Positions 33,690 to 35,190 of a DNA stretch of 64,000 nt are shown here, in pieces. Both the position numbers and the translations under genes were made by a program. Source of the DNA: an uncultured Candidatus Saccharibacteria bacterium (GTDB lineage: Bacteria > Patescibacteriota > UBA1384 > XYA2-FULL-43-10 > 1-14-0-10-43-13); the NCBI GenBank assembly GCA_964543385.1, contig CAZIYE010000002.1, forward strand, positions 34 to 64,033. Direction: 5' to 3'. A model generated the notes under the pieces. The model saw only the letters and a program-made list of their open reading frames with translations. It did no database searches and was not told where the DNA came from. How positions within the stretch are numbered: position 1 is the first letter of the stretch; each line of letters starts with the position of its first letter.

Positions 33690-33742
33690 TAACTATCATT
33701 TTGACTCTTGACAAGATGTAAAGCCTGCTTTACATTTTAGAT

Positions 33743-34492
33743 ATGGAAGAAAAAGATTTACCAATCGAAAACAGGCTTAAGGACTTGCGAAAAGAAAAGC
33801 ACCTTAGTCAAGAGGAATTAGCCGATGCAATCGGTATTTCTCGTCAGTCAATAATCTCACTTGAACAAGGCAGATCAATGCCTTCTGTTCCGTTGGCGAT
33901 TTCCCTATGTCGGTATTTTGATGCCGCATTTGAAGAACTTTTCGACTTCGAGCGCGAAGTTGATAGAGAAATCAACAATGCAATTCACAATGGTAGTATT
34001 AATATAAAAGTAATTAATGATCCAGAAGTCGGATCGAGAAAGGACAATGCTATGGTAGAATTAGAGCCATGGAGACCTTTTAGAGAAACAGTATCCTTGA
34101 GAGACGCAATGGATCGGCTTTTAGAGGATAGTTTTATTACTCCTGCCAAAATGGGGGGTATGCCTCGAATTGATGTCAAAGATAAGAAAGACTCAATTGT
34201 AGTTAAAGCCGAGTTGCCAGGAATCAAGGAAGAGGACATCAATGTCGAAATCCTCGATAATGTCATGACAATCTCAGGTGAGAAAAAAGAGGAAAAAGAA
34301 GAGAAAGAAGAGGACAAAGGCTATTATTACAAAGAAAGCCATACTGGAAAATTCTCTCGAAGTTTCACCCTGCCATCTGAAGTAATGACCGAAAGGGCCG
34401 TTGCTGATATGAAAAATGGTATTCTCACAATCACTGTTCCAAAAATAGAGCCAAAGAAAGCTCAAAAGATAAGCATCGCCCCAAAGAGATAA
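33743..34492 (+). CDS. XRE-family HTH domain fused to a complete Hsp20/alpha-crystallin small heat-shock protein
   Basis: Residues ~8-65 LRKEKHLSQEELADAIGISRQSIISLEQGRSMPSVPLAISLCRYFD (HTH_3). Then WRPFRE ... PRIDVKDKKDSIVVKAELPGIKEEDINVEILDNVMTISGEKKEE ... GKFSRSFTLP ... GILTITVPK (alpha-crystallin domain) in one uninterrupted frame. Confidence 0.75.
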   Translation: MEEKDLPIENRLKDLRKEKHLSQEELADAIGISRQSIISLEQGRSMPSVPLAISLCRYFDAAFEELFDFEREVDREINNAIHNGSINIKVINDPEVGSRKDNAMVELEPWRPFRETVSLRDAMDRLLEDSFITPAKMGGMPRIDVKDKKDSIVVKAELPGIKEEDINVEILDNVMTISGEKKEEKEEKEEDKGYYYKESHTGKFSRSFTLPSEVMTERAVADMKNGILTITVPKIEPKKAQKISIAPKR

Positions 34493-34563
34493 AGGCCATC
34501 TAAATAATAAATAACCCCGAAATTTAATCGGGGTTATTTATTATTAAGGACGGACCTATTATT

Positions 34564-35190
34564 TTATGAAAGAAAATCTTTGCCACTCCAATCATCCATA
34601 AATTCTCTTAGATATTTTGCGATAATCTCATGTCTCCTATCTGCAATTATTCTAGCAGTTTTAGTATTCATCATATCTCTTAAGAGCAAAAGTTTTTCAT
34701 GAAAGTGGTTTATACTTGATCCATTTTCTTCCTGAGATTCTTCAGGGTCGAAAATTGGTCTATTTATCTGTGCGCCGTAAGCAAATGTTCTGGCAATACC
34801 AATAGCACCTAGTGCATCGAGTCGATCTGCATCTTGGACGATTTGTGCCTCTAGTGTCTCTGGTTTTATAGCATGCCTTTTATCCTTGAAGCTCACTGTT
34901 AAAATTACATCAATAATTCTATCAATCTTTTCTTGGCCAATCCCTAGAGTGTCCAACCATTTCCGCGTCTTGGATCTCTCTTTCTCATCTTCTACACTTG
35001 AGAACTTGTGATCATCAATATCATGAAGCAGAGCAGCCATCTCTACAATAAAAGCATCGGCTTTTTCCTTTTCGCAAATATATTGTGCAGCTTTCCAAAC
35101 CCTCTGAGTATGCCACCAATCATGACCAGAAATGTCATCCTTGAAAAAATCTTTTACAAAATCAATTGTTTTCTCTATTTCTTTATTCAT
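34564..35190 (-). CDS. HD-domain metal-dependent phosphohydrolase
   Basis: HTQRV ... LLHDIDD HD motif; 208 aa. Confidence 0.8.
   Translation of the reverse strand: MNKEIEKTIDFVKDFFKDDISGHDWWHTQRVWKAAQYICEKEKADAFIVEMAALLHDIDDHKFSSVEDEKERSKTRKWLDTLGIGQEKIDRIIDVILTVSFKDKRHAIKPETLEAQIVQDADRLDALGAIGIARTFAYGAQINRPIFDPEESQEENGSSINHFHEKLLLLRDMMNTKTARIIADRRHEIIAKYLREFMDDWSGKDFLS

Follow-up and report, generated by a model that had tools for sequence, protein, structure and literature searches.

A helix-turn-helix domain fused to a small heat-shock protein: a candidate autoregulated heat-shock repressor in Berkelbacteria and related Patescibacteria

What would a small heat-shock protein (sHSP) do with a DNA-binding domain of its own? 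The question is raised by one gene on the forward strand of a 64,000-nucleotide stretch (the window) of contig CAZIYE010000002.1, assigned to an uncultured Candidatus Saccharibacteria bacterium. A preliminary description made from the sequence alone had read positions 33743–34492 as an in-frame fusion of a Cro/C1-type (XRE) helix-turn-helix (HTH) domain with a complete Hsp20/alpha-crystallin chaperone, and had suggested that the product could be a self-contained thermosensor or chaperone-repressor. Our comparative analysis of the protein, its promoter and its relatives is, as a whole, probably best explained by an autoregulated repressor of a compact heat-shock regulon in which the sHSP half serves as the stress sensor, its binding, the sign of regulation and its release being predictions.

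The gene is one unbroken open reading frame (ORF) of 249 aa with an ATG start, as seen both in the ORF listing and by direct reading of the sequence. Pfam places HTH_3 (residues 12–66, E 5.8e-15, 55.5 bits against a cut-off of 23) and HSP20 (residues 144–245, E 1.6e-23, 83.2 bits against a cut-off of 20.8, profile positions 1–101 of 102) in this single frame at the coordinates first described. The suspected N-terminal HTH is thereby borne out by its own profile, and the segments WRPFRE and ITVPK, by which the chaperone half had been recognised, lie where they were claimed to, at residues 110–115 and 230–234. A sequence search of the Protein Data Bank (PDB) divides the protein in the same way: residues ~8–71 match a 65-aa PbsX-family regulator (9k3w, E 4e-11) and CylR2 (1utx, E 3e-8), residues ~106–246 match sHSP chains (Hsp16 and wheat Hsp16.9, E about 1e-20; residues 140–242 at E 1e-19 to 5e-20), and no solved chain spanning both halves was found. 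NCBIfam contains no whole-length family for the protein; its models of sHSP equivalogs, XRE repressors and antitoxins match only below threshold, and the Hsp18 match begins at residue 118. Both modules are confidently folded in the AlphaFold2 monomer, with a predicted local distance difference test score (pLDDT) of 84–94 for the HTH (helices at residues 12–18, 23–30, 34–41 and 49–59) and of ~80 for the alpha-crystallin domain, which forms seven beta strands. Residues 88–139 are of low confidence, the linker having a pLDDT below 50 from residue 88 onwards. The fusion protein is a CylR2-like HTH joined by a variable tether to a complete sHSP.

The idea that adjacent genes for an XRE regulator and an sHSP were merely joined by a sequencing or assembly frameshift has next to no chance of being right. 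The best 120 database relatives (57–100% identity, 231–279 aa), which come from five independent data sources including NCBI, JGI, ENA and Logan assemblies, without exception have the two Pfam domains together in a single ORF; the protein of the window occurs in identical form on four contigs, and the in-frame linker varies in length. When one genome per GTDB species was scanned, 80 loci were obtained, 52 of which have a full-length fusion at 29–82% identity, in Berkelbacteria and other Patescibacteria according to their record titles; with the window these make 53 full-length fusion loci, and the window and the 80 loci together comprise 846 kb. This recurrence in relatives and representative genomes excludes an assembly artefact, including the frameshift or stop between the domains that the preliminary description had asked to be checked, and it answers the suggested database check for the HTH_3 and HSP20 pair. 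Where relatives are named, they are labelled only ‘Hsp20 family protein’ and belong to Berkelbacteria or ‘Patescibacteria group’ metagenome-assembled genomes (MAGs). At the other scanned loci, mostly from Chloroflexota, the tblastn matches begin only at query residues 73–110 (mostly 95–110), and these loci therefore represent stand-alone sHSPs, with which the fusion shares its sHSP N-terminal region.

In an alignment of 25 sequences, the sHSP N-terminal region has the highest mean column majority (0.81), closely followed by the HTH and the alpha-crystallin domain (0.79 each), and the linker has the lowest (0.46). Residues S33, R34, Q35, S36, I38, L40, E41 and G43 of the HTH are invariant, as are G202, R206, F208, L210, P211, G226, L228, P233 and K234 of the alpha-crystallin domain, and the C-terminal I/V-x-I/V motif, the anchor that joins sHSP dimers into oligomers, is retained in 24 of the 25. 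Judging from these patterns, both domains are under strong constraint. The extent of the family is harder to state, as a clean count was not obtained: when residues 1–135 were searched with phmmer against 50% cluster representatives, the core family merged into one representative and multi-HTH repeat proteins dominated, with a few dozen further single-HTH clusters of 200–255 aa, several of which also match the sHSP N-terminal region. The top matches of this search (P0241, P0242, P0243, P0247 and others) are proteins of 400–1000 aa with 5–11 tandem copies of related XRE HTH domains.

If the HTH is functional, it should have a site. XRE HTH domains bind palindromes as dimers, and a site placed over the -10 hexamer represses transcription. 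The preliminary description had proposed looking for a palindromic operator at 33690–33742, and one is present there (Table 1), occupying the spacer and the -10 of a near-consensus promoter (TTGACA, 17-nt spacer, TACATT; 10 of 12 consensus matches in a promoter scan). Its 18-bp core, TGTAAAG-N4-CTTTACA, has a single exact copy in the window. Across the 846 kb there are 51 exact copies, every one of them no more than 400 nt upstream of a fusion gene, and no exact copy elsewhere. The two fusion loci without an exact core carry one-mismatch copies at the same position (TGTCAAG in L023, AGTAAAG in L048), which brings the operator to 53 of 53 full-length fusion loci. It is retained even where the protein has drifted to 29–32% identity (L063, L078 and L080), a conservation across distant homologues that fits the invariant recognition helix. 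TTGACA stands exactly 3 nt before the operator in 43 of the 51 own-gene sites with an exact core, and the family consensus at the right flank, CTTTACA(T/A)T, makes the -10 TACA(T/A)T. In this arrangement the bound protein would sit over the -10 of a promoter that is strong in itself, as expected of a repressor, and conservation of the operator at all 53 loci is strong comparative evidence for a functional autorepressor HTH whose binding is predicted.

The position of the operator between -35 and -10 is also where MerR-type activators bind, and the fusion protein could in principle activate its promoters from the spacer as they do. We regard this as very unlikely: promoters of MerR-type activators have over-long spacers of 19–20 bp, whereas the spacer here is an optimal 17 nt between a consensus TTGACA and a TACA(T/A)T -10, so the promoter should be strong unaided, and the HTH is of the XRE type, as in the repressor CylR2. 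Returning to repression, the operator also lies very close to the coding sequence. Its end is 8 nt from the ATG, which itself begins 6 nt past the -10, in the window and at 18 of the 51 loci (L001, L007, L008, L010 and L011 among them). Because this leaves no room for a Shine-Dalgarno sequence between the -10 and the ATG, the fusion-gene mRNA is probably leaderless.

Does the operator serve any gene other than that of its presumed repressor? The bare 14-base core is unspecific in large sequence collections, and we therefore scanned with TTGACA-N3-TGTAAAG-N4-CTTTACA, which has 20 specified bases and by arithmetic is expected about once per 10^12 positions. On viral contigs the bare core occurs at background level, with TTGACA at the correct spacing in one of 121 sites; that site (L116) was rejected, as unrelated phage ORFs follow it. 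The metagenome scan yielded at least 120 loci, which were oriented by their -35 and whose downstream genes were identified by clustering and tblastn. Among the matches listed on contigs with a guanine-plus-cytosine (GC) fraction below 0.5, a sample of unknown order as far as the proportions of the categories are concerned, the module precedes the fusion gene (22), dnaK (20), grpE-dnaK(-dnaJ) (4), groES-groEL (11) and a clpB-like gene (1), with start codons 20–140 nt downstream.

Several of these sites occur together in one organism. Contig Ga0194053_10000003 (200,483 nt) carries the fusion gene at 193–197 kb and dnaK at 65–75 kb, the latter preceded at a distance of ~105 nt by an exact TTGACAAAATGTAAAGTCTGCTTTACAT, and contig Ga0172380_10000019 (365,542 nt) has exact sites at both dnaK (L270) and groES-groEL (L335). 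In the Berkelbacteria MAG PEZW01, the site at the fusion gene is exact (L022) and that at groES is one mismatch off (L332); the DnaK protein of this MAG recurs on other contigs (L325, L326), there preceded by an exact site. In assembly JAKJEL01, dnaK (L327) and groES (L333) both follow exact sites. In sum, the site is carried by all four independent dnaK loci with upstream sequence and by all three groES loci examined, and the nearest relatives of DnaK and GroEL from operator-bearing loci are named Berkelbacteria or Patescibacteria, several of them belonging to MAGs or contigs also recovered for the fusion gene. The suggestion of a chaperone-repressor is thus supported by the conserved operator, and it can be widened beyond a self-contained unit, since the same module precedes dnaK, grpE, groES-groEL and clpB in the same organisms and makes the protein look like a regulator at the level of a regulon. 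From these comparisons it is highly probable that the fusion protein would bind TGTAAAG-N4-CTTTACA and repress a regulon of its own gene, dnaK, groESL, grpE and clpB.

Some features of the individual loci deserve mention. Behind the same operator, dnaK and groES have ordinary leaders with AAGGAG-type ribosome-binding sites. At L273 (4218–4253), two promoter-plus-operator matches overlap on opposite strands around one palindrome and may be a divergent promoter pair under a single operator. Berkelbacteria dnaK operons contain a conserved ORF of 213–218 aa between dnaK and dnaJ that has no Pfam hit (L323 6027–6683, L325 3226–3867, L327 5986–6636) and is possibly an uncharacterised co-chaperone or regulon member. 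At L048, clpB lies immediately 3' of the fusion gene, apparently in the same operon. Reduced fusions also occur behind the operator: L206 encodes 190 aa, without the WRPF N-terminal region, and has clpB 577 nt past the site, apparently in one operon; L258 encodes 142 aa in an ORF 20 nt past the site and retains only the HTH, the last alpha-crystallin strands and an I-x-V tail. The closest stand-alone sHSPs, from Chloroflexota (L049–L077; 42–47% identity to residues ~100–249), adjoin dnaJ, clpB, dnaK-grpE or groESL. This chaperone neighbourhood is missing at the Patescibacteria fusion loci, where the shared operator makes the link instead.

The same scan also uncovered proteins that could compete for these sites. 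Among the matches listed on contigs with a GC fraction of 0.5–0.69, the module mostly precedes a small membrane-protein gene of the Pfam family DUF2178 followed by a 62–99-aa HTH-only gene, or an HTH-only gene directly. Units of DUF2178 and HTH were seen in this GC range at L207, L209, L215, L237, L243, L251, L256, L275, L279, L280, L289, L292, L294, L307 and L314, and in low-GC contigs at L216, L262 and L276. The HTH-only proteins share the helix V-S-R-Q-T-I-x-A-I-E-x-G-K-Y-x-P-S-L, as does CylR2. It could therefore be argued that the fusion protein only autoregulates, or is a mere target, and that a separate HTH-only, CylR2-like regulator binds the dnaK, groES, grpE and clpB operators; such proteins have the same recognition helix, sit behind the same operator, usually after a DUF2178 gene, and five of their loci are low in GC. 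Most HTH-only modules, however, are on contigs of 0.5–0.69 GC, unlike Patescibacteria; the recognition helix of the fusion is invariant and the operator is always at the fusion gene; sites at the fusion and at chaperone genes co-occur on the same contigs; and two proteins of the same specificity would cross-bind anyway. A separate owner of the chaperone-gene sites is thus possible and unparsimonious, given the co-occurrence and the identical recognition helices, and we consider it improbable.

These HTH-only units nevertheless point to where the DNA-binding half may have come from. CylR2, the cytolysin repressor of Enterococcus faecalis, which works with the membrane partner CylR1, has the same HTH subtype as the fusion (E 3e-8), with S-R-Q-T-I in its recognition helix against S-R-Q-S-I. 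The cytolysin promoter region between cylL-L and cylR1 in the plasmid record contains the palindrome TTTTGTCAAGTG-T-CACTTGACAAAA, whose half-site TGTCAAG matches TGTAAAG at six of seven positions and whose spacer is 5 nt rather than 4 nt; the exact Patescibacteria core is absent from that record. CylR2 is reported to bind the cytolysin promoter (PMC3709268), and we infer that this palindrome is its site. The small membrane protein CylR1 has a ‘DER’ motif in common with the DUF2178 partners (‘DERD’ motif). The units of DUF2178 and XRE HTH form a widespread CylR1/CylR2-like system outside Patescibacteria, whose operator does not seem to have been described. Like CylR2, the fusion protein is predicted to act as a repressor at a promoter palindrome, and it has the traits of the CylR2-like subgroup, a recognition helix S-R-Q-[ST]-I and a TGT(A/C)AAG-type half-site. 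In contrast to the fusion, CylR2 is a 66-aa stand-alone domain that receives its signal via a small membrane protein, has an operator spacer of 5 nt and targets a toxin operon instead of chaperones. Membership of the fusion in a two-gene CylR1/CylR2 system was rejected: it has 249 aa with an sHSP, its neighbours are a methyltransferase-like and an HD-domain-like gene, and there is no membrane partner. On the simplest history suggested by the sequences, a complete sHSP was joined in Patescibacteria to a repressor of the CylR2 type, which retained its operator specificity and whose operator came to be placed at chaperone promoters.

How might such a repressor be released? Alpha-crystallin domains form dimers, which the I-x-I motif and the N-terminal region assemble into dynamic oligomers; these come apart on heating and form joint assemblies with unfolded clients. 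We propose that a dimer of the fusion protein, or HTH pairs displayed by sHSP dimers, would bind the 18-bp palindrome and block RNA polymerase, so that the free protein would repress its own gene together with the dnaK (or grpE-dnaK-dnaJ), groES-groEL and clpB promoters in Berkelbacteria and related Patescibacteria. When heat or proteotoxic stress sets in, the sHSP half would reorganise, with oligomers dissociating and the N-terminal region becoming exposed; its capture in sHSP-client assemblies would draw the HTH away from its operators and derepress the regulon. The induced DnaK, ClpB and GroEL would then clear the clients, and the returning free repressor would switch the response off. That client titration is the release signal appears to us evenly balanced, and the most complete statement, that the fusion acts as master regulator of heat shock across Berkelbacteria and related Patescibacteria, with clients titrating it off the dnaK, groESL, grpE, clpB and self promoters, is put forward only tentatively.

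A different trigger would leave the regulon and the repression unchanged. The alpha-crystallin half could be an intrinsic thermometer, mainly a temperature-sensitive dimer or oligomer scaffold in which heat alone alters the geometry or stoichiometry of the HTH pairs and frees them from the DNA, clients being irrelevant. Oligomer equilibria of sHSPs are intrinsically temperature dependent, and the oligomer-building I-x-I motif and N-terminal region are conserved here. Despite the loss of most of the client-binding N-terminal region, or of much of the alpha-crystallin domain, the reduced variants L206 and L258 still lie behind the operator, and heat-induced deoligomerisation of IbpA is cited in PMC8155344. 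On the other hand, no segment of the fusion is better conserved than the N-terminal region (0.81), through which sHSPs mainly bind their clients; this argues that chaperone function has been retained, and we consider a pure thermometer rather unlikely.

Against the broader proposal of a client-titrated regulon repressor there are several points to weigh. The window itself offers only the own-gene site: its three further operator matches, with 3 mismatches, are no more than chance predicts (4 found against 5.1 expected), so the regulon is drawn from relatives, and in 52 genomes there is no second operator site within ±6 kb of the fusion gene. No operator copy lies upstream of the lon gene of the window (~61.8–63.1 kb on the forward strand; 53% identical to a fragment of E. 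coli Lon), so that Lon seems to stand outside the regulon in this genome. The proportions seen in the metagenome scan carry the limit given above. HTH-only paralogues with the same operator, some of them in low-GC contigs, provide a second protein that could share or own the chaperone-gene sites. Dimers of sHSPs normally survive heat, and oligomer dissociation alone is therefore not an obvious way to release a dimeric HTH from DNA. The AlphaFold2 monomer, with a predicted template modelling score (pTM) of 0.35, does not give the geometry between the domains. DNA binding, repression and stress release are all predictions from sequence.

Chaperone titration as such is familiar, being common to HrcA-GroEL, HspR-DnaK and sigma32-DnaK. 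The proposed model would differ from these precedents in that the sensor and the DNA-binding effector are one polypeptide acting at transcription. Like the HrcA system of Bacillus, Chlamydia and others, with its CIRCE element (controlling inverted repeat of chaperone expression) and GroEL feedback, it would combine a conserved inverted repeat at the dnaK and groESL promoters with chaperone feedback and autoregulation. HrcA, however, is an unrelated winged-helix protein, CIRCE (TTAGCACTC-N9-GAGTGCTAA) is unrelated in sequence and absent from the chaperone promoters here, and GroEL is a separate chaperone acting in trans, whereas in the fusion the sensor chaperone, an ATP-independent sHSP, lies within the repressor. 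In 1.12 Mb there is a single CIRCE-like match, 3 mismatches off and placed downstream of groEL rather than in a chaperone promoter; no hrcA adjoins grpE-dnaK in the loci examined; B. subtilis HrcA has no tblastn match in the window and the first 80 loci (E 1e-8) or in the at least 120 metagenome loci listed (E 1e-4); and neither Pfam nor NCBIfam detects an HrcA-like domain in the fusion protein. Membership in the HrcA/CIRCE system was accordingly rejected.

HspR, which acts at the HspR-associated inverted repeat (HAIR) in Streptomyces, Mycobacterium and Helicobacter, represses the dnaK and clpB operons, and its DNA binding requires a chaperone, the corepressor DnaK, that is titrated by unfolded proteins. 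The fusion model shares this titration logic at dnaK and clpB; HspR differs in having a MerR-type HTH, a HAIR site, a non-covalent DnaK and no alpha-crystallin domain, and assignment of the fusion to HspR was rejected. RheA of Streptomyces albus is a dedicated, autoregulated thermosensing repressor of the sHSP gene hsp18; it is a protein distinct from the sHSP, and its regulon does not extend beyond hsp18. Plant chromatin proteins with ARID and alpha-crystallin domains reportedly unite DNA-binding and alpha-crystallin domains in one polypeptide, and are said to be parts of eukaryotic chromatin complexes with another DNA-binding fold and no operator-based link to heat shock. Another of the closest precedents, and itself an sHSP, is E. 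coli IbpA, which represses its own translation and that of sigma32 and has been proposed as an aggregation sensor (PMC10410725, PMC10474464). The statement in the preliminary description that sHSPs are normally regulated in trans therefore needs qualifying. As in the fusion model, IbpA is an sHSP that is both chaperone and regulator and is proposed to be relieved by sequestration in aggregates (PMC10410725, PMC10474464; bioRxiv 10.1101/2020.04.20.050740), but it acts post-transcriptionally, binding 5' untranslated regions of mRNAs through the sHSP without a DNA-binding domain, whereas the fusion would place an HTH at a DNA operator. An RNA mechanism of the IbpA type was rejected for the fusion gene, since in the window and at 18 of the 51 loci its start codon is too close to the -10 for there to be a 5' untranslated region to bind.

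The coordinates of the gene, its promoter and its neighbours are collected in Table 1. The hairpin between the convergent fusion and HD-domain-like genes (-24.6 kcal/mol, z-score -5.7, none of 200 shuffles folding as well) is likely a bidirectional terminator, although a simple terminator scan missed it. The methyltransferase-like gene is also found upstream of the fusion on contig Ga0194053_10000003 (L329 51–599), so synteny is partly conserved.

Table 1. Features of the fusion locus, in positions of the 64,000-nt window
Feature	Position	Strand	Basis or context
tmRNA (transfer-messenger RNA) gene, tag peptide AKSLVERVKTAFAGFAFAPVAA	32348–32735	-	~1 kb upstream of fusion gene
Methyltransferase-like gene, ~182 aa	33138–33689		upstream of fusion gene
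-35 hexamer TTGACA (consensus)	33708–33713	+	promoter scan
Operator, extended palindrome AAGATGTAAAGC-ct-GCTTTACATTTT	33713–33738	.	inverted repeat, 12-nt arms, 92% complementary
Conserved 18-bp operator core TGTAAAG-N4-CTTTACA	33717–33734		
-10 hexamer TACATT, inside right operator half-site	33731–33736	+	promoter scan
Fusion gene, 249 aa + stop	33743–34492	+	ORF listing, sequence read, Pfam
Cro/C1 (XRE) HTH domain, residues 8–70	33764–33952	+	Pfam HTH_3; PDB matches; pLDDT 84–94
Recognition helix I-S-R-Q-S-I-I-S-L-E-Q-G, residues 32–43, CylR2-like	within 33764–33952	+	
Variable linker, residues 71–103	33953–34051	+	column majority 0.46, length variation
sHSP N-terminal region, residues 104–140 (ELEPWRPFRE..SLRDAMDRLLEDSFITP)	34052–34162	+	column majority 0.81
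Alpha-crystallin domain, residues 141–235	34163–34447	+	Pfam HSP20; PDB Hsp16, Hsp16.9
Acidic loop KKEEKEEKEED, residues 181–191	inside alpha-crystallin domain	+	
C-terminal I-S-I, residues 243–245 (I/V-x-I/V motif)	34469–34477	+	motif in 24/25 aligned relatives
Hairpin, perfect 18-bp stem, symmetric A/T-rich flanks	34500–34548	.	RNA fold
HD-domain-like gene	34564–35190	-	convergent with fusion gene

We found no description of an HTH-sHSP fusion, of its operator or of heat-shock regulation in Patescibacteria in open-access papers and bioRxiv, and the terms ‘helix-turn-helix’, ‘fused’ and ‘DNA-binding’ are all absent from a 2021 review of bacterial sHSPs. A literature match to the operator string, for phage 13, was set aside, as it consists of primer sequences only. 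The earlier impression that the architecture is undescribed thus holds for this literature, although the proteins themselves are abundant in databases as ‘Hsp20 family protein’. What appears to be new is the molecular solution and the regulator family, the logic of the regulation being known already.

Control of the stress response is largely unknown in the Candidate Phyla Radiation, which makes up a large share of bacterial diversity and whose members have tiny genomes with few recognisable regulators. For these bacteria the fusion supplies a concrete candidate regulator, an 18-bp operator and a defined regulon. If the proposed mechanism is true, the sensor sHSP holdase, the transcriptional repressor and one of the effector chaperones would be a single polypeptide, an unrecognised class of bacterial heat-shock transcription factor to be placed beside sigma32, HrcA, HspR, CtsR and RheA. 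The chaperone-titration model is still debated for HrcA-GroEL and Hsf1-Hsp70, and the fusion would be its simplest, cis-linked natural form because sensor and repressor are covalently linked. The set of promoter, operator and repressor could also act as a portable sensor of heat or misfolding in synthetic biology.

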